A DNA stretch of 22,821 bases. Origin: Octopus sinensis. Its lineage: Eukaryota. Below are positions 952 to 22,619 of this stretch, piece by piece. A program made the position numbers and the translations under genes. The first letter of the stretch is position 1, and each line of letters starts with the position of its first letter. Below the pieces are notes generated by a model. The model saw only the letters and a program-made list of their open reading frames with translations, did no database searches and was not told the origin of the DNA. The stretch is from NCBI RefSeq assembly GCF_006345805.1, contig NW_021836679.1, positions 1 to 22,821 of the forward strand, written 5' to 3'.

Positions 952-1148
952 ATGGTTTCAAATTTTGGTACATGTCCAGCAATATCAGGGAAGGGTTTAA
1001 GTCAATTACATTGAGCTACTTCTCAACTGGTGCTTTTTTATCGACTCTGAAAGGATGAAAGGCAAAGTCGAGCTCGGTGGAATTCGAACTCAGAACCTAA
1101 AGGCGGACGAAACACCTCTAAGTGTTTCGCCCGCCATGCTAAGGATTC
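952..1148 (-). mobile_element. Family-1 tRNA-derived SINE, older diverged copy with a non-A tail, lacking its first ~15 nt
   Basis: B box (GAGTTCGAATTCC on minus) and central block (tcgactctgaaaggatgaaaggcaaagtcga on plus) shared with other copies; more substitutions than its neighbours. Confidence 0.85.
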
Positions 1149-1564
1149 TTATTTCTATATTCCCCAGAAGAGGTTACACATAGAGGGGACAAACAAGGAC
1201 AGACAAAAGTATTAAGTCGATTACATCGACCCCAGTGTGTAACTGGTACTTATTTAATCGACCCTGAAAGGATGAAAGACAAAGTCGACCTCGGCGGAAT
1301 TTGAACTCATAACGTTACGGCAGACGAAATGCCTATTTCTTTATTACCCACAAGGGGCTAAACACAGAGGGGACAAACAAGGACAGACAGACGGATTAAG
1401 TCGATTATATCGACTCCAGTGTGTAACTGGTACTTATTTAAGCGACCCCGAAAGGATGAAAGGCAAAGTCGACCTCGGCGGAATTTGAACTCAGAACGTA
1501 ACAGCAGACGAAATACCGCTAAGCATTTCGCCCGGCGTGCTAACGTTTCTGCCAGCTCGCCGCC
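1149..1564 (-). mobile_element. Family-1 SINE, tail-A head-to-tail dimer (full unit 1333-1564, head-less 184-bp unit 1149-1332)
   Basis: Minus strand starts GGCGGCGAGCTGGCAGAAACGTTAGC (A-box-like), then B box GAGTTCAAATTCC, then a central GCCTTTCATCCTTTCGGGGTCG block resembling the Meta/MESC SINE domain, and ends ...GTAATAAAGAAATAG. Confidence 0.92.
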
Positions 1565-1565
1565 T

Positions 1566-1730
1566 TAACAACAACAACAACAACAACAACCGCAGCAGCA
1601 ACAACAACAACAACAACAAATAATGATAATGACGATGATGATGATGATAATAATAATAATAATAATATAATGATATTAATAATAATAATAGTAGTAGTAG
1701 TAGTAGTATATGTAGTAGTAATAATAATAA

Positions 1731-1768
<38 letters not shown>

Positions 1769-1810
1769 ATAATAATAATGATATAATAATAATAATAATA
1801 ATAGTAATAA
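1566..1810. repeat. Compound trinucleotide microsatellite (AAC/GAT/AAT/TAG)
   Basis: Direct reading. Confidence 0.95.
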
Positions 1811-2091
1811 TCTACTAAAGACTCAACAAGTCTGATTACATTAAACAGACAGTGCATTCAGATCTATTTTACAATTCAAATTATTTTTCTCGCTTTCGAT
1901 TCATTTATACTAAATAAAAGAATTAGAGAAAATTACAAAGTATAATCTCAGAAGGCAGAGAATAAAGGGTTTATGCTCGAGGGTCCATGACCGAGGGCGA
2001 AAAACTGATTGGCGCTGGTCTTGTGTAATGTCGTTGATGCATGGTTTACTGTAATTAAACGGACATCTTGTTTGGTAGATAGGAAATCTAA

Positions 2092-2772
2092 GTGAAAGGA
2101 GGGAGGGAGAGAGGTAGGAAAAAGAGATGGTGAGAGAGAATGGGAGAGTTGGAGATAGAAACAGAGAGAGAGGGATAGAGAGAAAGGGAGAGAGAGAGAC
2201 AGAGAGAGAGAGAAGAATGAAAATATCTTGGATATTGATAGTTGGATATTTGGATAAAGCAAACATTTGATCGTTGGAAAACTTCAGAATACACACTCAC
2301 ACATACATGTGTGTGTATGTGTGCGAGCATGTGTGTGTATGTGCGTATGTATGCGTGCGTGCATGTGTCTGTGTGCGCGCATGAATGTGTGCACGTGTAG
2401 CGTGCATGTATATGTATTTATGTATGTGTATATATATATATTATATATATATATACTAATATATATAATATATACATAACTATATATATAATTACACACA
2501 CACAATCACACATATATATACACATATATATTACAACCATGCATACACACCTATATTATATATATAATATATTACATATTATACATTACCTATATACATA
2601 CACACACATATATATATATATACACACACAATATATATATTTACATATATATATATATATAGGTATATAAAATGTCTATATATATATGTACATATATATA
2701 TATGTATAGATATATATTATATATCATATATATATATATATACATACATACATTCATACATTACATACATAT

Positions 2773-2803
<31 letters not shown>

Positions 2804-2845
2804 CATACATACATACATATACATACATATTTATATATTTATATG
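2092..2845. repeat. GA-rich tract followed by degenerate (TG)n, (TA)n and (CA)n microsatellites
   Basis: Direct reading; short unique spacer near 2220-2290. Confidence 0.9.
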
Positions 2846-3255
2846 TTTGTTAATTAAACACTGGATTTTCGCAATATTATTTTGTTTTTGTATTTGTACA
2901 AATATTTCGTTGTTTTTTGAACCTAACATCAGATTAGATTATTTTTTATCCGTAAAATCTGACGGATACAAATATCTAAGTAAATATTTATGTAACAGCC
3001 ATATCTAGGAGGATAATTATAAAAAGGTTGTTTGTATTTATCTAAATCTAGCAATTTGTGTTTATTTATATATCTGAAACAACAGAACAAAACCCCAACC
3101 GTTTCTATTACGAGTTGAGTCATGCGTTTCACAGAATGGTTTACACAAAACACAAACAATGGGGTAAACAAAACACATGACTCACAAATGAGAAGATAGC
3201 TACCTCTTAAAAATGAGTGGATACGATTTCTTATACTTGGCTTCATGGATTCATA

Positions 3256-3482
3256 CGAAAGGGTGCTGAAAAGTTCCTGACTTTAAGGGTACTGCAAAAG
3301 GCCTTTGGTGGACGCACAACATTTCCAGTTCTTTTACAGGGCTTGCAAAAAAACTGAAAGACCGTGCGAATCTGTGCGAATAATAAGTGTGCGAATCCTA
3401 GAGGGGAATATGTTGAGTGAAATTATAATTAACTGATTCTCCTGGCTTTACCCAAACCCAGGAAGGTTTCAGCACAGTCTCT
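3256..3482 (+). mobile_element. Mariner-derived MITE (internally deleted, old)
   Basis: TA at 3254-3255 and 3483-3484; 29-bp imperfect TIRs (3256-3284 and 3454-3482, 21/29 matching by eye); 3385-3420 encodes KCANPRGEYVE*, the typical mariner transposase C-terminus. Confidence 0.85.
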
Positions 3483-3503
3483 TATATATATATAAATATT
3501 AAT

Positions 3504-3869
3504 GCGGCGAGCTGGCAGAAACTTTAGCACGCCCGACGAGATGCTTAGCGGTATTTCGTCTGTCTTTACGTTCTGAGTTCAAATACCGCCGAGGTCAACT
3601 TTGCCTTTCATCCTTTCGGGGTCGATTAAATAAGTAATAGTTATGCACTGGGGTCGATATAATCGACTTAATCCGTTTGTCTGTCCTTGTGGGTAGTAAA
3701 GAAATAGGTATTTCGTCTGTCTTTATGTTCTGAGTTCAAATTCCGCCGAGGTTGAGTCTGTCTTTCATCCTTTCGGGGTTGATAAAGTCAGCACCAGTTG
3801 CATACTGGGGTCGAGCTAATTAACTGCCCTCCCCCACAAATTTCAGGCTTTGTGCCTAGAGTACAAAAG
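3504..3869 (+). mobile_element. Family-1 SINE chimeric dimer (unit 1 tail A 3504-3707, unit 2 tail B 3708-3869)
   Basis: A and B boxes present; two central blocks; junction GAAATAG|GTATTTC at 3701-3714; unit 1 tail has a deletion between CCTTGT repeats. Confidence 0.92.
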
Positions 3870-3894
3870 TACACACACACACACACACACACAC

Positions 3895-3933
<39 letters not shown>

Positions 3934-3972
3934 ATACACACATATACACACACACATATATATATATATATA
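3870..3972. repeat. (CA)n(TA)n microsatellite
   Basis: Direct reading. Confidence 0.95.
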
Positions 3973-4019
3973 TGAAGGTTTTTAAATGACGATCAAGCTG
4001 GTCACTAACAAAGTCAAAA

Positions 4020-4170
4020 GATATTCTGAGTTACTTATGTTCTGTATCGACATGTCCCTTTCGGGGTCGATAATATTGTGTACCAGTTGAAACCTGGGAT
4101 CGCTGTAATCGAATTACTGCAATCCGAATTGTTGTTTTCCTATCTGTCTAAATATTAGAAAATTACTATT
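4020..4170 (+). mobile_element. Degenerate family-1 SINE fragment
   Basis: cctttcggggtcgataa...taccagttg...ctgggatcg...gtaatcga aligns with the central block of the intact copies. Confidence 0.65.
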
Positions 4171-4570
4171 TTTAAATCTCACAACGAGAGATATTCAGCA
4201 ACAGTACTTTGTAGTAAAGACTGCTTGCCAACATAACATGGCAGTCCTGGTTTAGGACTAATGTTGCTGTAATTTATCCCTTGGAGACATCGTCTCCAGT
4301 GGGCTATACTACAAGATCTGTGTAAATATAGTTTTAAACGCATTTAAGTCGCTATTTCCCTAAAATAAAAGACCCTCCATGTCTAGAAATAGCAGCAGAA
4401 TCTCCCCCGAAACGTTGCAATGTATGGTCATTGAATCACTTTGTCTGAAAATATAATATAATTCATATTCCTCATATTCTATGATAAAACAACAAGATAT
4501 ATTTCTCATACATCGTGTTTTCCCCCAAGGAATATAATAACACGAACATATTTCAGAACATACGCATGAA

Positions 4571-4721
4571 TGTGTGGTAAGAATCTTGCTTACTAACCAA
4601 ATGGTTCCGGTTTCAGTCCCACTGCATGGCACTTTTAGCGTAAGTATCTTCTATAATACCCTCGGGCCGACCAAAGTCCTGTGAGAGGATTTTGGAGACA
4701 AAACCTGAAGAAAACCCGTCG
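4571..4721 (+). mobile_element. Family-2 tRNA-derived SINE, 5' module
   Basis: tgtgtggtaag...ggtttcagtcccactgc (B-box-like)...ctcgggccgaccaaag; homologous to 11545-11710 (minus) and 20625-20725; followed by (TG)n. Confidence 0.8.
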
Positions 4722-4722
4722 A

Positions 4723-4754
<32 letters not shown>

Positions 4755-5027
4755 ATCATTACTTTTCATGTATGTGTGTTTGTCGATGCACACAACCAGT
4801 TGTGTGAATCTGATAATTTAGATTTTTTCCGATGAAAATTCGTTTTAAGATTGAAATTTCTCTTTCATCTCGTTTTAAAGTTCCTACCAGATGTTCTACC
4901 TTTTTCTCACTCATCGTAAAAAAACCTGAAACGGGAATCAAAGAATATCGAAGTGTGAAACTTTTAGCTTCCTGTGAAATATATGAAACTCAAGAATAGA
5001 ATTGAATATTTCCTTTTCTTCACTCTT

Positions 5028-5088
5028 CACACATACATACATACATACACACATACATACATGCATACATACATACATACATACATAC

Positions 5089-5119
<31 letters not shown>

Positions 5120-5451
5120 CATACATACATACATACATACATACACAATAATACATACATACATACATACATGCATACTAATACATACATGCATACATAC
5201 ATACATACATACATACATACAAAATACCAACATGCATGCATACAACATACATCATAATACATACATACAGACATACATACATCATACATACTTACATACA
5301 ACATACATACATACATAACTACATGCATGCATACATACATAAAACCTACATACTACATACATACATACATACATACATACCTTACATACATACATACATA
5401 CATACATAATACTTACATACATACATACATACATACAACATACATACATAC

Positions 5452-5482
<31 letters not shown>

Positions 5483-5746
5483 CATACATACTTACATACA
5501 TACATACATACATAACCATACATACATACATACATACATACATACATACATACATACATACTTACATACATACATACATACATACATACGTACATATACA
5601 TACATACAAAACTATATACACACATACATACATACATCAACATACATACATACATACACACATACATACAACACATACATACATACATACATACATACAT
5701 ACATACATACATACATACATACATACATACATACATACATACATAC

Positions 5747-5777
<31 letters not shown>

Positions 5778-5778
5778 C

Positions 5779-5809
<31 letters not shown>

Positions 5810-5862
5810 CTTACATACATACATACATAATACATACATACATACATACATACATACATACA

Positions 5863-5893
<31 letters not shown>
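5028..5893. repeat. Long (CATA)n tetranucleotide array
   Basis: Direct reading, ~865 bp with CTTA variant units. Confidence 0.97.
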
Positions 5894-5895
<2 letters not shown>

Positions 5896-5939
5896 CTCTT
5901 TTTTAAAATTAAAGAAAAAAGAAGAATCTGGATAAACTG

Positions 5940-6149
5940 CGATTTTCAGAAGGAGAAATTGACAGGCTGATTCGTACAATATAAAGGCAATGTGTGAATG
6001 GAACAGTGAAAATATGCAAGACTTTTCTCAAGTTCCAAATGTGAATTTGTCTATGTTAACTACATCCCAAAGATGGAGCCGAGTCTCTTATTTAATTACT
6101 ATAAATTTTCCACTGAAAATTTATAGTAATTAATTAATAGAAGAGATAG

Positions 6150-6182
<33 letters not shown>

Positions 6183-6452
6183 CATACATACATACATACA
6201 TACATACACACATACATACATACATACGTACATATGAAAGCTTGAATTTTCATAAAAATAAATCAACTGATTCGCACTTTACAATATAAATATGCGGAAC
6301 AGTATATATATGCAAGACTTTTCTTAGGTTTAAAATACGACATCGTTTTCGTTATCTACATTCCAAAGATGGAGCTCTGTATCTTTGTTAGAAACCATCT
6401 CTTTCTTCAGAGGAAGATTTTAAATGGTTAAATACAGAAAAGACATACATAC
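5940..6452. repeat. Two diverged ~200-bp direct copies (~5940-6150 and ~6240-6445), each followed by (CATA)n
   Basis: Collinear shared blocks CTGATTCG, TACAATATAAA, GGAACAGT, ATATGCAAGACTTTTCT and CTACATYCCAAAGATGGAGC at ~300-bp offset. Confidence 0.85.
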
Positions 6453-7009
6453 ACTTGCAAAACGACACACACTTATATATGTAAATATATGCATATATTA
6501 ACTTGTGTGTGTATGTGTGTGTGTTTCTGTGTTCCTGTGTTCCTGTGTAAGATTGCTGTTAATAGTGACAGCAAATACATATATTTAAGATATAGAAAAG
6601 TATGTTTCTTTATAAATTCAAATATTTACATATTGTAATTAACTTGGCATCGAACAATCTCGGAAAAGGAAAGAATATAAACGAAACACTTTTTTTTTTT
6701 CACTTTAAAGTTTGTTTTAATGTTTTAGAGAGTGAAAATTTAGTCAAATGCTTAATAAATATCAAATAAGCTTAAATACATACGATGAAATGTATTTAAG
6801 AAATGTGTAGCAGCACGATATAGCAGAGATTCTCAAGAAAGGACAGCTATAGCAACTGGATGGGAATCAAGAATGGGGGAATCTCGGAGAGGCCTTATTT
6901 AAATTGCCGAAACAGATTTAAATTTAGCCGATTTCTGGGAGCTGGAAATGCCTTAGAGATAAACCTAAAGGCTGTCTTCTCTGTCATTTCCACGCATATA
7001 CATGTATAT

Positions 7010-7610
7010 CTATTTCTTTACTACCCACAAGGGGCTAAACACAGAGAGAACAAACAAGGACAGACAAACGGATTAAGTCGATCACATCGACCCCCAGTGC
7101 GTAACTGGTACTTAATTTATCCACTTCGAAATGATGAAAGGCAAAGTCGACCTCGGCGGAATTTGAACTCATAACGTAACGGCAGACGAAATATCTATTT
7201 CTTTACTACCCACAAGGGGCTAAACACAGAGAGGACAAACAAGGACAGACAAACAGATTAAGTCGATTACATCGACCCCCAGTGCGTAACTGGTACTTAA
7301 TTATCCACTTCGAAATGATGAAAGGCAAAGTCGACCTCGGCGGAATTTGAACTCATAACGTAACGGCAGACGAAATATCTATTTCTTTACTACCCACAAG
7401 GGGCTAAACACAGAGAGGACAAACAAGGACAGACAAACAGATTAAGTCGATTACATCGACCCCAGTGCGTAACTGGTACTTAATTTATCCACTTCGAAAT
7501 GATGAAAGGCAAAGTCGACCTCGGCGGAATTTGAACTCATAACGTAACGGCAGACGAAATACGGCTACGCATTTCGCCCGGCGTGCTAACGTTTCTGCCA
7601 GCTCGCCGCC
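7010..7610 (-). mobile_element. Family-1 SINE tail-A trimer (units 7010-7194, 7195-7378, 7379-7610)
   Basis: Three near-identical units; only the one ending at 7610 has the A-box head; possible decayed TSD tatacatgtat (6997-7007) / tatccatgtat (7613-7623). Confidence 0.95.
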
Positions 7611-7611
7611 T

Positions 7612-8006
7612 CTATCCATGTATCCACATGCATGCATGCATGCATCCATCCATCAATTGATCCATCCATTGATCCATCCATCTCCGCCTATTATTCCTGG
7701 GAGGGTGTTGGGGGTAGCGTCCTCAGGCACCTCCTCCACAAGGCCCTCTGAGAAGCAACCGTTATTGCACATTGCTCCTGGTTTCCCAAGCCCGAGCAAC
7801 GGAGTACTGCGGATATTATCCAATCATCAGGTCCTTGGTTCATCCCGAGGTCTTCTGCCATTTAGCTGGGCTTGAAGAATCCGTCTCGCGATTCTTTCCT
7901 ACGATAGTCTAATCACACACCTGCAGTACCTAAGCAGTTATCTCTGAATGCAAATATGTAGCAATTCGACTTGGAGATACTGTTTGATCTCAGAACTATG
8001 CACTCT
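7612..8006 (-). mobile_element. 5'-truncated, decayed RTE-clade LINE (Rex3/Expander-like) 3' end with (GATG)n-type tail
   Basis: Manual minus-strand translation from 8006 gives RVHSSEIKQYLQVELLHICIQR*LLRYCRCVIRLS*ERIARRILQAQLNGRRPRDEPRT**LDNI, and after a frameshift ALWRRCLRTLPPTPSQE* (stop 7693-7691). This matches the RTE C-terminal pattern LRWxGHxxRM...GRRPRGRPRTRW. Degenerate (TGGA)n tail at 7612-7680. Confidence 0.85.
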
Positions 8007-8013
8007 ATATAGA

Positions 8014-8077
8014 GGCGCGATGGCCCAGTGGTTAGGACAGCGGACTCGCGGTCGTAGGATCGCGGTTTCGATTCCCA
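8014..8077 (+). mobile_element. Isolated tRNA-derived head of a third SINE family (Arg-like TCG at the anticodon position)
   Basis: A box TGGCCCAGTGG (8021-8031); B box GGTTTCGATTCC (8064-8075); no acceptor-stem 3' strand; truncated by simple repeats. Confidence 0.7.
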
Positions 8078-8089
8078 TCCATGTTGACG

Positions 8090-8945
8090 ATGACCTTCAC
8101 CTCTGTCATCACTATCCTCCTCCTCGTTATTGCAATTATCACCATCACACTACCACCACCATCATTGTCCTCATCATCACCATCACGACGACGACGACCA
8201 ACTTCATCACCACTGCAACCATCACCACCACCACCACAACATCATCAATATCATCACCACCACCACCACCACCACCACCACCACCACCACCACAACTATC
8301 ACTGCCGCAACCACCACCACCAACGCAATCACCAATACCACCACCACGACCACCACAAACAACACCACTTCCGCAGCCACTATCACCTTCACCACCACCA
8401 CTATCACTGCTACAGCCACCACCACCACCACCATCACCACCACCAACACCAGCACTAATACCACCACCACTACCGCCACCATCACCATTACCATCACCAT
8501 CACGATCACCAACACCACCACCGCCGCCCCCTCAGCACCACCGCCCCCTCAGCACCACCGCCCCCTCAGCACCACCGCCCCCTCAGCACCACCGCCCCCA
8601 CCACGACCATCGCAACTACCATCGCCACCACAACCACAAACAACCATCACCACCACAAACAACTACCGCCACCACCATCACCTCCAACATTACCGTCTCC
8701 ACCCTCACTGCCACAACCACCACCACCATCAACACAACTAATACTGCCACCAACACCAGCACTAATACCACCACCACCACCACCACCACCACCACCAACC
8801 GCCCCCCACCACCACCACCACCGCCCCCCACCACGACCATTGCAACTACCATCGCCACCACAACCACAAACAACCATCACCACCACAAATAACTACCACC
8901 ACCACCACCACCATCACCATCACCACTATCCTCTTCCTCACCAAC
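8090..8945. repeat. Degenerate (CCA)n/(CAT)n low-complexity tract containing a 17-bp minisatellite at 8524-8599
   Basis: Direct reading; CCGCCCCCTCAGCACCA four times plus a partial unit. Confidence 0.9.
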
Positions 8946-9137
8946 ATATATGTCGGAGTGTCACCATATTTCAAGGATGGAAAGTTTGGCAAGATTTCAC
9001 TGAATTCTTCAACAGTTTTGGCTGTATTTGATGTTTATTGAGTTGACAGAAACCAGTAGGTTAATTGAAAGAGAGTTTCAATGGGGGGACACTGTGATGC
9101 TGGTGTGTAGCCATGGAAACTGGAAATTCTTCATAGA

Positions 9138-9315
9138 TGCACACACACACACACGCAAACACACACACACTCACACACACACACACACACAAATACACAC
9201 ACGCACACGCACACACAAATACATACACTGCTCTCTCTCTATATATATATATGCATATCCACATAACACACACATCCACACATATATATACATGCGCACA
9301 TATAACCTATATATA

Positions 9316-9348
<33 letters not shown>

Positions 9349-9365
9349 TATATATACATATATAT

Positions 9366-9397
<32 letters not shown>

Positions 9398-9464
9398 CTA
9401 TATATATATATATATATATATATATGTTATATATATATGTATGTATACATATATATATATATAC

Positions 9465-9503
<39 letters not shown>

Positions 9504-9589
9504 AATATGATGTATGTATATATATATATATATAGCATTCGTGAAAATGTTGATTATATATAGATATACATACAAACATACATATGTAA

Positions 9590-9629
<40 letters not shown>

Positions 9630-9684
9630 TATATATAATATTTTATTTATATATTTATATAATACATATACATACATACACACA

Positions 9685-9737
<53 letters not shown>

Positions 9738-9810
9738 TGTGTATGTGTGTGTGTGTGTAACTGTGATGGGAAAGTAATTCACTATACAAACACACACACA
9801 CACACACACG
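9138..9810. repeat. (CA)n/(TA)n/(TG)n microsatellite cluster
   Basis: Direct reading. Confidence 0.95.
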
Positions 9811-10556
9811 TACTGACACACTACTGTAGCCGCACATACAGTAGTGGACCGATACGCACACACAGAGACTCTGTCTGTTAATAAATTACTTGTAGGTGTT
9901 ATGTCACAAAGATGTTGCTTTGAGCTATTTTGCTTCCTGTCTTTTTTTTCTCTCCTAAACCCGATCTCTCAGTTTTCCAATATTCTATCAACTTACCTGA
10001 CTTCTTTTCCATTTTTCTCACCACATAATTATATCTAGTTAACTCTTTTATATATTTATTTATTTTTTTCGCTACTGTACCTTGCCTTAAATGTGTTAAC
10101 AGTAACTAAATTATTATCTTTCGTATGGACGCAGTCTCTGAGTTTTATATATGCTTTTTCCAAACAATTCTAGTTTTCTAAATCAATCTGTTTAGAATTC
10201 GGTACTGCTTGTTAGTAATTCTCTCAGCATTACTTTAGCAAATACAGTCAAATGTATTCATTGCTGAAGAGGTTATAATAAAAGGGAAAGTGGTTGGAGT
10301 GATCTCCCCTACTATGTGAAAGAAATGGAAATGATATTGTTAATCGACCACTGATATTGTTTTTTGTATCTCACAAAATAGTTTTCCGATATCTAAGTGG
10401 CTAAAATGTATCAGCAGAAGGGCATCCAGTCGATATGACCTGTCTACGGCACGGGTCCCTCAGAGTGTAAGAAGTTAGAGTTAGAAGACCCGCCTGAGGC
10501 GAGTGTGGGGTGGTTTCTTCGCTGAAGACATTCTGCTGTTTAGTTCTCTTACCACT

Positions 10557-10753
10557 CCTTTCTACGGCACGTACAAGGCCTGAAGATATCGTGGAGTGGA
10601 CTTGTCGACTACATCGACGCTCCGTAGTCAACTGGTACGTATTTCATCGACCCCCCGAAAGGATGAAAGAAAAAGTCGACGTCGAAACGTAAAGACCTGG
10701 ACAAAGTTCTGTCAAACCTTTTGTTGTCTTAACTGTTGTGATAGCTCGTCGCT
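10557..10753 (-). mobile_element. Family-1 SINE, diverged tail-B copy with B box deleted
   Basis: cctttctac...acaaggcctgaa (tail B), tcgaccccccgaaaggatgaaagaaaaagtcgac (central block), agctcgtcgc (head). Confidence 0.75.
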
Positions 10754-10950
10754 TTTGTGTTCCGCTCCATAACTTTATTTACATTAACTTTTTAACATTT
10801 TCTATATTTCGTTGCTTGATACGAACACTAACTTAACCGCATAAATATATCCTATTCTTACTGTTCCCTTCCTCAGTGTGTTTACATTAACTAAATAACC
10901 ATCTTTCGGTTAGATGCCATTTCTATGGCAGATATATATATTTTTCCAAA

Positions 10951-11305
10951 GGCGGTGAACTGGCAAAAACGTTAGCTCGCAGGGCGAAATACTTTTCGGT
11001 ATTTCGTCTGTCGCTACGTTCTGAGTTCAAATTCCGCGGAAGTCGACTTTGCCTTTCATCCTTTCGGGGTCGATAAATTAAGTACCAGTTACGCACTGGG
11101 ATCGATGTAATCGACTTAATCCGTTTGTCTGTCCTTGTTTGTCCCCTCTGTGTTTAGCCCCTTGTGGGTAGTAAAGAAATAAGGAACGTTAGCACGCCGG
11201 GCGAAATGCTTAGCGGTATTTTGTCTGCCGCTACGTTCTGAGTTCAAATTCCGCCGAGGTAGACTTTGCCTTTCATCCTTTCGGGGTCGATTAAATAATA
11301 AACCA
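10951..11305 (+). mobile_element. Family-1 SINE dimer (full tail-A unit to ~11183, second unit from ~11185 lacking the first ~16 nt and 3'-truncated)
   Basis: Two B boxes and two central blocks; junction GTAAAGAAATAAGG|AACGTTAGC. Confidence 0.9.
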
Positions 11306-11310
11306 ACCCC

Positions 11311-11710
11311 ACTTAATCTGTCGGTGTCTTTTTGCCCAATTGCGATGTTACGGGGACGTAAACACACCAACACCAACTGTCAAGCAGTAAAGGGAGACAA
11401 ACACACACACATACATACTCACACAGCGACATACACACATACAAACAGACACAATGACACACACGCACAAAAAGACATACACACATACACATACAAAGCT
11501 ACACACACACACACACACACACATTCACCCCCCAACATATATATATGACGCGCTTGCTTCAGTTTCCCCAACCAAATTTTATTCTCAATACTTCTGACGG
11601 CCCGAAAGATATAATAGTAGACACTAGCCCCTAGGTGCCACGCGGAAGGACTGAACCTAGAACCATGCGGTTGGAAAGCAAACTCCTTACCACGTAGCCA
11701 CGCTCGCGCT
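11311..11710 (-). mobile_element. Family-2 SINE, bipartite with an internal microsatellite
   Basis: Head and 5' module at ~11545-11710 homologous to 4571-4721; internal CA-rich tract; 3' module ~11311-11400. Confidence 0.8.
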
Positions 11711-11835
11711 TGCTTACCTTCTTAACAAAACAACGGGAACACCTTGTATGCCGTATCAATCCTAGCTTAATATACAAGACGCATTGATAACGGCTGGCAT
11801 GCCTTTGATCATGCAGAGCTGACCTAGGGCTAAAC

Positions 11836-11865
11836 ACAACCACCACCACCACCACCACCACCACC

Positions 11866-11897
<32 letters not shown>

Positions 11898-11922
11898 CAC
11901 AACAACACAACAACAACAACAA
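11836..11922. repeat. (CCA)n(CAA)n microsatellite
   Basis: Direct reading. Confidence 0.95.
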
Positions 11923-12009
11923 CTGCAGCTGCACTATCAGCATTATTAACAACATCAACAACATTTGGCTCATCGTTTACTGGGATGACCTTCACCGATG
12001 AACACCCAT

Positions 12010-13575
12010 CCCTAACTACGCTCTTCCCATTACGCTCTCCTTTTCTCCTTGTCCAAATTCTACGTTTCTCTCCAGCTTCTTCTTCATATTTTACTCCTCA
12101 TTCCTCTAGTTCCATATCAAATTCTCTCTCTTTCTCTCTTTCATGCTCTCCATACACAGTCTTTTCTCTCTCTTTAGATTGTTCCTTGTCGCTCATTCTC
12201 TTTCTTTCTCTCTTTTATTCGTTAAGTCTCTTTCACTCTTCTTATTCAAAACCATTATTCTCTCTTACTTCTTTGTCTCTCCTTTACTCTACTCACTCAC
12301 TCAAACACTCACGCTCGGATTCAATTTTTCTCTCTCACTCATTCCCCATCGACTGACTCTCTCTCTCACTAATTCCCTCTCACACTCACTCTCTGACTCG
12401 CTAATCCCCCCTCTCTCTCACTCTCACTCACTCACTCACTCAACTCATTTATTCACTCATTCTCTCAAACACTCACTCACGCTCTCACACTTCACTCTCA
12501 GAGTCACTCCTTCACTCATTCCCTCACTCATTCACTCATTCACTCATTCACTCACTCAATCAGTCACTCACTCATTCACTCACTCACTCACTCACTCACT
12601 CACTCACTCACTCACTCACTATTCACTCACTCACTCACTCACTCACTCACTCACTCAATCACCATTCACTCTCTCCCTCGCCTTCCCTTCCTTCCCCTCC
12701 TCTACCCCTCTCCTCTTTCCAACCTTCACTCTCCCTCTCTCTCTCTGTTTTCTCTTCCACATTCTTTGTTCCTTTCTCCCTCCCTCTCTCTCTCTCTCTC
12801 TCTCTCTTATTCTTACTACTCTCCTCTTTATCTTACTCATTCTTCTCCTCTCTCCCCCTCTCCCTCTCTCTCTCTCTCTTATTCTTACTACTCTCCTCTT
12901 TATCTTACTCATTCTTCTCCTCTCTCTCACACTATCAGTGACCTTTTCTTCTCTTGTCCTCTTCACTCTTTTCCTTCTTTATCTATCCTCCTCCTCTCTC
13001 TCTCTCTGCTTGTCATTAGCCTTTCCTCTTTCTCTCTCCGTCCTGACTGCATTGCCTTCTCCTGTCTCCCCCTCCTACTTCTTCCACCTTTTTTAATCTT
13101 TCTCTCTTCCTCTCGCTTATACTCCTTCTTATTCATCTCTCTCTCTCCTTTCTCATCTTTCTCGCTACCTTCCTCTCACTTATTCTCTCCCTTTCTATTC
13201 ATCTCCTTTCTCTCCGTTTCTATTTCTATCTTCCTCTCACCCACCCTCACATTCTCATTTTCTCACCCTCTTTCACTCTCCCTCTCTCCCTTCCTCTCTC
13301 GCATTTCCTCCCACCTTTTCTATTCTCCTCTACACTCCGCTCTCTCCTCGCTTCTTCTCATTCCTACTCTCCCCAACTTCTCCCCTTCCTCTTCTCTACT
13401 CTCCCTTCCTCCCTTCCTCCCACTTTCTCTCTCTCGCATTTCCTCTCACCTTTTCTATTCCCCTCTGTCCTCCACTCATTCCTCATCTCTTCTCTTTCCT
13501 ACTCTCCCCAACTTCTCCCCTTCCTCTTCTTTACTCTCCATACTCCCCCCCACCACCACCGTTACCCTTACTCTC
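12010..13575. repeat. ~1.5-kb pyrimidine-rich tract with a (CACT)n core and two internal direct duplications
   Basis: Almost G-free plus strand; (CACT)n ~12540-12655; duplications ~12790-12855/~12865-12926 and ~13295-13400/~13430-13535. Confidence 0.92.
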
Positions 13576-13762
13576 CACTGACACAATCTTTACTGTAATC
13601 TCTCCTTCTTAGTTATTGATTTTTCCGTGAATTTCATCGATCGGCAAATGAGATTTATTATTCAACACTGAATTATTTACCAATATCGTCCTCTAAAGTC
13701 AAATTGTCGGAGCCTGCCTGCCAGCAGACCTGCCTGCTTGCCATTATTCAACTGTTACTAAA

Positions 13763-13810
13763 TATCATCATCATCATCATCATCATCATCATCGTCATCA
13801 TCATCACCAA

Positions 13811-13861
<51 letters not shown>

Positions 13862-14045
13862 TATCGTCATCGTCATCATCATCATCATCATCATCATTAT
13901 CATCATCGTCATCGTCATCATCTTCATCACCAACATCATCATCGTCCTGGTCGTGGTCGTCGTCGTTATCACCATCATCATTATCATCACTTCATCCTCC
14001 TCCTCCTCCTCCTCATCATCATCATCATCATCAACCATAATCATT
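13763..14045. repeat. (CAT)n microsatellite with CGT/CCT variants
   Basis: Direct reading. Confidence 0.95.
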
Positions 14046-14060
14046 GCCGTTGTCGTCTCT

Positions 14061-14350
14061 CAGTGGAACTGAACCGGAACCATGTGGTTGAGAAGCAAGC
14101 TTCTTATTTCATTATTGCCCACAAGGGGCTAAACACGGAGGGGGGAAAAAAAGCACAGACAAACGGATTAAGTCGATTGTATCGACCCAATGCGTAACTG
14201 GTACTTATTTAATCGACCCCGAAAGGATGAAAGGCAAAGTCAACCTCGACGGAATTTGAACTCAGATCGTGTGGTAACGTTTCTGCCAGCTCGCCTCCTT
14301 AGTCGACCTAGGCGGAATTTGAACTCTTACAACGCAGCCTCGCCTGCGCC
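14061..14350 (-). mobile_element. Family-2 SINE head (14061-14106 and 14325-14350) split by a nested tail-A family-1 SINE (14107-14324)
   Basis: Removing the insert restores a head collinear with 11641-11710; TCTTA is duplicated at 14102-14106 and 14325-14329. Confidence 0.85.
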
Positions 14351-14711: not shown

Positions 14712-14914
14712 ATCGCTAGCACGCCGGGCGAAATGCTTTGCGGTATTTCGTCCACCGCTGCGTTCTGAGTTCAAATTCCGCCGATTTCGACTTTGCCTTT
14801 CATCCTTTCGGGGTCGATAAATTAAGTACCAGTTACGCACTGGGGTCAATGTAATCGACTTAATCCGTTTGTTTGTCCCCTCTGTGTTTAGCTCCTTGTG
14901 GGTAGTAAAGAAAT
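14712..14914 (+). mobile_element. Family-1 SINE tail A, lacking its first ~16 nt
   Basis: gctagcacgccgggcgaaatgc, then B box, then central block, then gtagtaaagaaata; short microhomology deletion in the tail. An older minus-strand fragment lies at ~14615-14690. Confidence 0.9.
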
Positions 14915-15390
14915 ATATATCTCTAAAACCATTAAAATGCAGAGGGACGCAAAAATGCCAATTGCCGTTTGTAACGTTAAAAGATTCTGCGAAGATCGAA
15001 AAGGAAACCGTACAGGAAGTTATATTTCCACAATTAATTCAAAATAAATCTAAAATGTCCACCGAAATATAACTAAAGGGTTAATTTCATGAATCATTCT
15101 ATTAAAAACTTAAGTGACTTTTGCGCTACCCTTTAGACAGAAAATGCCGCGTTCACAGCATTAATTGAGACTTCTTCCAAGGATACAAATTGGGATTCAG
15201 GCGAAGAATAATAAAGGGATAGTTTATTACTTGAATGTCAGTCTTTGCCAGCGATTTCATTTTATTGATCACGGAATGCTAAAAGGGAAAAGACGCCATG
15301 AACGGGAGAATTGAACCGAAAACATAGATCGGTGCAGCTCTTTTGTCCAAAACAAGACGTTTGTGAAAATCTAACGTTATTTTCTTCGAT

Positions 15391-18914: not shown

Positions 18915-18921
18915 ATATATA

Positions 18922-19770
18922 CAAGGTCTGATCAATAAGTATCCGGACTGTTGCCATAGTAACGAAACTAAAGCACGCAGCGTCAAACTGTTGGGCAAAG
19001 ATTGACCTTGAACTTTGTTGTGCATGCGCACTAAGTTTTAACATTCTAACTCACCTCCGCTGTTTACAGCAACTCTTGGAAGGAAGGTGTGTAGCTAGTA
19101 ATCGTCGAAAGTTGTCATGGGGATATCTGCTCAGGGGCCTATGCAAAGTTGCAGAAAGTGTATGGAGAGGAGTGTATGAGCTGCACACAAGTGTATGGGT
19201 GACACAGATGCTTCCAAGATGGCCGAAAACATGTCGATATTGATGAATTTTCTGGGAGACCCTGAACCAGCAGAAACTGAGAAAAACACCGCAGATGTGC
19301 GTGCAGCTGTGAGGAGAAATCGTCGAATCACCATCCGTGAGTTATCAAAGAATGTGCAGATTATTTACGGTTCAGTTCAGTCCATTATCACTGAAGATTT
19401 GTGTATGAGACGCGTGTCTGCCAAGTTTGTGTCAAAACTGCTTTCAGCTGAGCAAAAAGACACTCGGGTCTCAGTTGCACAAGATCTCCTTCATTGTGTC
19501 AAGAACAGTGAAAACTTTTTGAAATCATTGCATAGGCCTTTAAGTAGGTATCGCCAAGATTTTGACAAAATTTGATGCGGAATCTCTGCTCAACTTCCCC
19601 TGTCATGGTCAATGCGACGATCACACACTACACACTTTCCTTCCAAGCACTGCTGTAAATAGCGGAAGTGAGCTAGAACGCTAAAACTTAGTTGAAGGTC
19701 AAACTGTGTCAAGCGTGGTTTAACTTCGTTACTATGGCAACAGTTGATAAGCAAGCTACTGATCACACGC
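18922..19770 (+). mobile_element. Non-autonomous mariner derivative with ~230-bp inverted arms
   Basis: TA followed by CAAGGTCTGATCAATAAGTATCCGGAC (mariner-type end); left arm 18922-19146 is the reverse complement of right arm 19528-~19770; the right terminus is decayed. Confidence 0.9.
19122..19527 (+). pseudogene. Mariner transposase remnant, N-terminal HTH DNA-binding region only
   Basis: DICSGAYAKLQKVYGEECMSCTQVYG*HRCFQDGRKHVDIDEFSGRP*TS, then a frameshift near 19275, then TEKNTADVRAAVRRNRRITIRELS...IITEDLCMRRVSAKFVSKLL (WVP linker equivalent)...ENFLKS; no DD(D) catalytic domain. Confidence 0.9.
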
Positions 19771-22179: not shown

Positions 22180-22619
22180 TACATACCTACTTACTTACAT
22201 ACCTACCTTCCTACCTACCTACCTACCTACCTACCTACCTACCTACCTGCTACCTACCTACCTACCTACACGCCTACCTACCTACCTACCTACCTACCTA
22301 CCTACCTACCTACCTACCTCCCTACCTACCTATTTCTTTACTACCCAAAAGGGGCTAAACACAGAGGGGACTAACAAGGACAGACACACGGGTTAAGTTG
22401 ATTAAATAGACCTCAGTGCGTAACTGGTACTTATTTAATCGACTCCGAAAGGATGAAAGGCAAAGTCGACCTCGGTGGAATTTGAACTCAGAACGTAGAG
22501 GCAGACGAAATATCCGCTAAGCATTTCGCCCGACGTGCTATCGTTTCTGCCAGCTCGCCGCCTTACCATACCTACCTACCTACCTACCTACCTACCTACC
22601 TACCTACCTACCTACCTAC

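Follow-up and report, generated by a model that had tools for sequence, protein, structure and literature searches.

SINE copies and junctions in the window

We analysed a 22,821-nt stretch of the Octopus sinensis genome (contig NW_021836679.1, positions 1 to 22,821; hereafter the window), which holds copies of a 231-nt short interspersed element (SINE) with a putative tRNA-like head. Copies ending in one particular tail, here tail A, have 3' ends that repeatedly abut the inside of another SINE head, and the genome-wide data presented below make it very probable that this is a real, massive and site-specific insertion of the SINE into its own family. Head position 1 is the first G of GGCGGCGAG in the reference copy, which lies at 1334-1564. 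Ten tail-A ends were detected in the window at no more than 3 mismatches; shuffled sequences gave 0.34 on average and none of 100 shuffles attained ten.

The original prediction, made from the letters of the window, held that seven of these ten ends are fused to part of a SINE head in the same orientation, and the same number was obtained here (7/10). The four junctions that it placed at about head position 47 lie at position 48 (1334/1333, 3706/3707, 7196/7195 and 7380/7379). The three that it placed in or beside the A box were also recovered, two of them at position 15 of the SINE's own family (1150/1149 and 11181/11182) and the third inside the A box of another SINE family, here called the second family (14105/14104). 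As it had stated, the three remaining ends (7011, 14915 and 22331) continue into non-SINE DNA, and the downstream partner can be an older copy with a different tail (tail B at 952..1149) or a member of another family (the second SINE family at 14061..14104). Its caution that the junctions of the trimer at 7010 may not be independent was justified: adjacent units have 5 and 4 rare variants in common, at least 2 being found in 96 of 5,000 random pairs, and both trimer junctions are duplications and not separate insertions. The unit at 1150..1333 has no rare variant in common with its neighbour and is therefore an independent event.

Features of the window, by position and strand:
952..1149, minus strand: older copy with tail B; the junction is at head position 15 (AGAATCC)
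1150..1333, minus strand: tail-A unit, head positions 48-231, with a tail ending in a GGGCAATAA-like variant
1334..1564, minus strand: full-length tail-A SINE of 231 nt, the reference and first unit of a three-part array
3502..3706, plus strand: tail-A copy with a tail deletion, partner-type (TCT) at positions 61-63, the positions being read from the sequence
3707..3869, plus strand: tail-D-like partner, entered at position 48 (GGTATTTCG)
7011..7379, minus strand: two 184-bp units duplicated in place, with junction letters GA-TAT, identical to the start of the outer 3' flank
7380..7610, minus strand: first trimer unit, a full-length tail-A copy whose head is of the G43/C48 variant
10951..11181, plus strand: full-length tail-A copy
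11182..11298, plus strand: same-family partner, positions 15-131
14061..14104, minus strand: 3' part of the interrupted second-family head (AGAAGCTTGC...)
14105..14326, minus strand: tail-A copy with a GGGCAATAA-type tail, positions 31-65 deleted and an extra 73-98 fragment at its 5' end, inside the A box of the second SINE family
14327..14350, minus strand: 5' part of the interrupted second-family head, retained upstream of the insert (partly read from the sequence)
14714..14915, plus strand: solo 5'-truncated tail-A copy, followed by TATAT
22331..22562, minus strand: solo full-length tail-A copy within (GGTA)n, with target duplication

Structure of the SINE family

The element is short, dispersed, present in high copy number and flanked by target duplications, as expected of a SINE. 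Exact tail-A ends number 75,549 for the main variant (GGGTAGTAA) and 23,221 for a second variant (GGGCAATAA) genome-wide. Copies with tails A, B, C and D have positions 1-166 in common; mismatch to their common consensus rises from about 3.5% in solo A copies to 7% in D and 11-13% in B and C. In the head, motifs resembling the A box and the B box (GAGTTCAAATTCC) were recognised by eye. ARAGORN detected no tRNA gene, and a search of Rfam gave zero tRNA matches and only microRNA matches driven by microsatellites. A hairpin is predicted at about head positions 29-63, with position 48 at the edge of the predicted loop. At every position-48 junction, as in the window at 3701-3714, the letters GAAATA-GG-TATTTC form a perfect 6-bp inverted repeat resembling the head's own hairpin.

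Several other peculiarities of the family were noted. The G43/C48 head variant, which reads CGTATTT, is found in 31 of 85 solo A copies, yet CGTA follows only 1 of 191 junctions; this variant is possibly a target-immune subfamily. Head-only tandem repeats (from positions 1-61 up to 1-68, with a few additional bases) lie upstream of a full copy (L104, L106, L111, L122, L126 and G000:C3430), with units of 65-67 bp that are up to 100% identical. Tail-D ends also occur at position 15 (L149, L218 and L227), where the terminal AGAAT overlaps the AGAATCG of the head.

Tail-A ends accumulate at head position 48 genome-wide

Among the 75,549 exact GGGTAGTAA tail ends, 24,284 (32%) continue into GGTATTTCG, that is, into head positions 48-56. 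Half of the first 100 tail ends of contig C1 were in register 48. When 99 C1 ends were classified, 38 junctions appeared independent, 12 were duplicated and 49 ends fell into other contexts; the junction was present at 35 of 83 loci. These duplicated ends, like the window trimer, bear out the earlier suspicion that some junctions arose as later duplications. Repeated rows (L131, L133, L145, L202, L203, L205, L220, L228 and L249) were removed before counting in some analyses, as was one L181 copy in the comparison of duplication divergence.

Uniform insertion would place 0.012% of the ends at position 48. The junctions are thus neither uniform nor as rare as SINE density predicts, being enriched more than 1,000-fold over the uniform expectation. 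A short target motif was tried as the sole explanation and rejected: a weight matrix built from 48 non-SINE targets (2.7 bits) and applied to a SINE-rich sample raised the expected share to 0.44%, far below 32%. A retroposon has been considered target-specific when more than 20% of its flanks are of one sequence type (PMC4494074); here the figure is 32% for exact ends, or 35/83 by loci.

Insertion into resident copies and growth of arrays

Around solo A copies, target duplications of 13-21 bp begin directly after GAAATA, and in 34 of 50 cases the duplication starts 13-21 nt from the element start. The base that precedes the duplication is biased (C 36%, G 2%). The pattern expected of a nested copy, head 46-58 followed by a new full head, occurs at 71 places in the genome. 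Nineteen of these loci were examined: eight consist of an old head, an 11-17-nt duplication, a young full copy and an old body resuming at position 48, with identities of 76-94%, 90-93% and 76-82% for old head, young copy and old body, respectively; five others are tandem head repeats, and the rest fit neither type clearly. A further locus (L139) retains 10 nt of a tail at position 48, accompanied by a duplication of 11 bp, and where the target is the non-homologous second family, the head is left upstream of the insert (L030; window 14327-14350). The nested copies with their duplications show true insertion into older heads and, together with the enrichment over uniform expectation, support the self-targeting retroposition that the original prediction had put forward. 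Classical nests nevertheless amount to 0.3% of junctions (71 vs 24,284).

Longer arrays have a different history. In arrays of at least 4 units, 48 of 74 neighbour pairs have at least 2 rare variants in common, whereas in those of 2-3 units only 6 of 41 pairs have rare variants in common. In-place multiplication with common variants, the mark of a SINE-derived satellite, is therefore a property of the former and not of the latter, and longer arrays, the window trimer included, grow mostly through local duplication.

Mosaic heads and relative ages in one-head arrays

Most arrays carry a single complete head. Among those ended by tail B and entered at position 48 or beyond, position 19 is target-type in 7 of 12, as compared with 10 of 70 solo A copies (p 0.002); the same arrays are target-type at position 36 in 3/12 and at positions 50 and 59 in 0/12. 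Partners with tail B or C are older than the A unit next to them (5.6% vs 2.9%, 24 arrays, p 0.005). Outer duplications have diverged further around arrays ending in C or D than around solo A copies (mean mismatches 1.58 vs 0.74, p 0.008), in a comparison with unequal offsets for A and C/D tails. Donor-type bases at 61-63 were found in 4 of 13 unselected hit D partners and in 1 of 26 unhit copies (p 0.035), and therefore donor sequence sometimes extends past the junction.

Two ideas were discarded. A simple model, in which a duplicated target segment 48-65 anneals to the complementary DNA (cDNA), is ruled out for most arrays, whose first units are donor-type at 50-63. Intact GGTATTT is depleted in unhit D copies (11/27 vs 22/27 for a control 7-mer, one locus being counted twice), but CpG decay confounds this comparison and it was not used.

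The landing site follows the tail variant and the target letters

The two tail variants differ sharply in their targets. Ends of the GGGTAGTAA type fall 24,284 times at position 48 and 143 times at position 15; the corresponding numbers for the GGGCAATAA type are 554 and 1,417, which gives an odds ratio of 434 for variant versus site. The same link is seen outside assigned heads: in 97 such ends, about 10 of which are short head remnants, the variants are associated with GG(TA), TA(TA) and AG(AA) (chi-square p 8e-11). The target letters follow the donor variant as GGTA[TTT], AGAA[NCNTT] and TATA, and other targets of the GGGCAATAA variant often read AGAANCNTT. The favoured words repeat what the SINE itself reads downstream of 48 and of 15, as far as a T run.

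At non-SINE targets, GGTATTT and GGTA-only sites were used in a ratio of 513:704 genome-wide against a background of 55:1,284, a 17-fold enrichment, although about one tenth of the listed 7-letter GGTATTT rows may represent heads that carry small indels. Extending the match to an eighth letter brings no clear gain once deleted heads are set aside. Accordingly, a putative RNA-borne tag of more than 7 nt at non-SINE sites was rejected, as about 40 of its 93 matches (about 56 expected) are heads with small deletions. Rough rates from exact-match counts for the main variant are 1.8e-4 per GGTA-only site, 3.1e-3 per GGTATTT site and about 0.3 per own head. Together, these data show that the site is set by the donor's tail variant and by sequence match.

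A second SINE family and the question of Pol III promoters

The original prediction described a self- or RNA polymerase III (Pol III)-promoter-targeting retroposon. The main variant uses the GGTA site in the A box of the second tRNA-SINE family at 13 per 109,779 heads (1.2e-4 per site), the same rate as at ordinary GGTA sites (1.8e-4). On the evidence of these SINE heads, general targeting of Pol III promoters, regardless of local sequence, is therefore unsupported. A narrower part of the proposal stands: the GGGCAATAA variant favours the A box of the second family (AGAAGCTTGC), with 192 insertions per 15,582 exact heads, about 180-fold above background. Six of nine letters of this site agree with the sequence at position 15 of the SINE's own family.

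Elsewhere in the window, another tRNA-like head of a third kind was seen by eye at about 8012-8076, and what looks, also by eye, like a decayed Tc1/mariner transposase with terminal repeats at about 18920-19750.

A LINE that shares the SINE tail

A long interspersed element (LINE) was found whose 3' end can be aligned with the last ~57 nt of the SINE tail and whose exact ends number 7,385 genome-wide. It was missed by a reverse transcriptase family search, in which 50 loci were read, and was found by tail-only matches. A young copy (L364; G000:C7:31415900-31421400) carries an intact second open reading frame (ORF2) of 1,152 amino acids and an upstream ORF. ORF2 contains RVT_1 and zf-RVT domains, its nearest solved protein is L1 ORF2p (E 1e-42), its homologs carry the PF03372 endonuclease domain, and a homolog exists in Argonauta. 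This combination of endonuclease, reverse transcriptase and zf-RVT, with L1 ORF2p as nearest solved protein, is that of the L1/Tx1 group. The element likely belongs to Tx1, with which a zinc knuckle seen by eye in ORF1 and a microsatellite target are consistent.

Thirty LINE ends (from L304-L333) were examined; 0/30 lay at a SINE head and most were in (TATC)n. The LINE tail variants also follow the first letters of the flank, GGCT going with CATATC and GGCC with CTTATC. We infer that this LINE is the mobilising partner of the SINE. Two further observations concern LINE sequences. The 30 best reverse transcriptase matches (L254-L283) are all on unplaced contigs, none of them with the SINE, and may derive from another compartment or organism. 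At L296 (~2926-4620), a LINE fragment seems to interrupt a tail-A end just before GTAGTAAAGAAATA.

Proposed mechanism and alternative explanations

The mechanism that best accounts for these results, and which we think probably correct, combines pairing of an RNA tag at the 3' side with homologous joining at the 5' side. The SINE RNA would read a few bases past its tail into the landing site of its parent copy and would end, at the first U run, in a tag such as GGUAUUU or AGAAACGUU. Tags of this kind may be inherited from master copies already resident at 48 or 15, which would create a self-reinforcing loop. The reverse transcriptase of an L1/Tx1-type LINE would prime where nicked DNA pairs with the 7-9-nt tag. 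At a same-family target, the cDNA ending in a head copy would then anneal to the resident head, with a crossover within positions 1-47, as the mosaic heads suggest; a crossover in the old head would leave a single head, and the duplication would vanish. Such a homology step could account for the ~90-fold excess over plain GGTATTT sites. In L1 priming, the RNA end pairs with 4-10 target bases (PMC3649969), and by analogy the proposed tag fits this range of complementarity.

Several of our observations weigh against this mechanism. Classical nests make up only 71 of 24,284 junctions, so that the majority class depends on the proposed homology step, as the tag depends on predicted RNA ends. Overwriting of the first target bases by the tag was not significant (8 changes toward the tag and 3 away at 34 sites, p 0.23), and the motif can be read in each of the two duplication copies, which endonuclease preference would explain equally well. 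Near-private variants do not clearly mark D partners as older than the A unit beside them (3.4% vs 3.0%, 53 arrays, p 0.19), and the last units of A-A dimers are likewise not clearly older (p 0.33). Some first units are target-type through position 64, and exchange points vary. Many of the B/C/D-ended arrays were selected by patterns requiring target-type bases at 59-65, and the comparison of outer duplications is limited by the unequal A and C/D offsets mentioned above.

The choice of site could instead lie with the endonuclease alone, each tail variant being moved by a separate sequence-specific Tx1-type LINE that recognises GGTATTT, AGAANCNTT or TATA, with homology merely shaping the 5' junction. 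The target choice of Tx1 elements is indeed ascribed mainly to the endonuclease (PMC4494074), and the motif in both duplication copies as well as the biased base before the duplication (C 36%, G 2%) also speak for it. We nevertheless consider this explanation unlikely: the sole tail-sharing LINE found lands in (TATC)n and never at heads (0/30), in the sampled loci none of 41 further entries at 48 or 15 had a LINE-type tail, the two tail variants differ by just two bases, and the favoured words coincide with the SINE's own downstream sequence up to the T run. It is also rather improbable that most one-head arrays were made at the DNA level after a few seeding insertions, by ectopic gene conversion or unequal exchange copying a 184-bp unit into a solo SINE. 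The scarcity of classical nests (71 vs 24,284), the common variants of neighbours in arrays of at least 4 units (48/74 pairs) and a few arrays with a target-type first and a donor-type last unit (C1:16.06 Mb) speak for such exchange, but arrays of 2-3 units rarely have common variants (6/41 pairs), and exchange points cluster, the 5' side lying before position 50 in 12/12 B-ended arrays, though homology spans 1-166. Moreover, 9 of 13 unselected D partners retain non-donor bases at 61-63, and the variant-linked motif at non-SINE targets would be left unexplained.

That same motif at genomic non-SINE targets, the old heads with duplications upstream of young copies, the target-type position 19 of B-ended arrays, and the greater age of B/C partners and divergence of outer duplications all argue against arrays born as chimeras in one step. 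According to this model, the reverse transcriptase would halt at 48 or 15 of one SINE RNA and resume at the 3' end of a second one; alternatively, preformed dimers would move whole. Such an origin would agree with the single head and single outer duplication of each array, with the similar ages of D partner and A unit and with the location of position 48 at the edge of the predicted loop; we regard it as highly unlikely. The least credible scenario, to which we give almost no chance, is an insertion complex tethered to Pol III promoters through TFIIIC/TFIIIB, as in tRNA-gene-targeting retroelements, with SINE heads used as such promoters. Both sites do lie within the tRNA-like head, and the GGGCAATAA variant has a preference for the A-box region in two families; against this, the main variant remains at background in 109,779 second-family heads, the site varies with the donor's tail variant, and C48 heads, common among solo copies (31/85), are almost never hit (CGTA after 1/191 junctions).

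Returning to tag pairing with homologous joining, a broader reading may be proposed tentatively, with a chance that we put somewhat short of even. Non-coding SINE lineages would possess a heritable, RNA-encoded target memory: each would carry a 7-9-nt tag from its parent's site, steer a borrowed LINE enzyme to the head of its own family and, through RNA-templated homologous joining at both ends, replace the old head, whereby a young subfamily would take over tens of thousands of old loci and seed minisatellites. If this is true, a non-autonomous retroposon can have a heritable target that is determined by the end of its RNA and not by the endonuclease; 5' homology raises integration about 90-fold; and the process amounts to a natural, guide-directed and seamless retro-insertion. 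It would be relevant to RNA-programmed insertion by LINE enzymes, for which two tail variants and a partner with intact ORF2 are at hand, and would show concretely how satellites can arise from SINEs. Estimates of age and copy number for cephalopod SINEs would be distorted, because many loci combine old and young subfamilies in a mosaic.

Comparison with known systems

TRE5-A and Ty3 insert at a fixed position relative to Pol III-type promoters, to which they are tethered by Pol III factors. The present SINE differs from them in that its main variant occurs at background rate in the heads of a second family. Three octopus SINEs, OK, OR1 and OR2, are tRNA-derived and abundant (cited in PMC4758252 and PMC4824008); by description, our element, with its putative tRNA-like head and its abundance, resembles them. 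The octopus repeat annotation, in the portion of PMC13282606 available, lists SINE and L1-Tx1 families without such targeting. No report of a cephalopod SINE targeting its own head, or of any SINE doing so at a variant-linked site, was found in the literature covered, the scope of which excluded Repbase/Dfam, supplements, Ohshima and Okada 1994 and Albertin 2015.

With the SINE-derived satellites of squamates (PMC10702118) and the tandem SINEs of the blood clam (PMC11481361), our arrays have in common one complete head followed by head-truncated units within one duplication. Arrays in those animals are ascribed to unequal recombination (PMC10702118, PMC11481361), and in the blood clam the internal units are also tail-truncated and tandems represent ~3% of copies (PMC11481361). 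Here, in contrast, such arrays take in one third to one half of the tail ends, and an origin by retroposition is shown by the nested insertions. The GGTA/GGTATTT profile recalls L1 priming, in which 4 target bases are critical and up to 10 contribute (PMC3649969); L1, however, pairs its poly(A) with T tracts, whereas the SINE would use a mixed, subfamily-specific tag inherited from its parent's site.

The nearest published case is SINEU-3/Tx1-Mar of crocodilians (Kojima 2015, PMC4494074). SINEU-3 is moved by the Tx1-type LINE Tx1-Mar and inserts in a Mariner DNA transposon, its tandems sandwich a duplication, and the specificity is attributed to the endonuclease; in R2-type elements, co-transcription with the target can strengthen targeting (PMC4494074). 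Both systems exhibit a strong preference for one site in a repeat, a Tx1-type LINE and tandem insertions. They differ in that here the SINE's own family is the target, the site varies with the tail variant and the old head would be replaced seamlessly.

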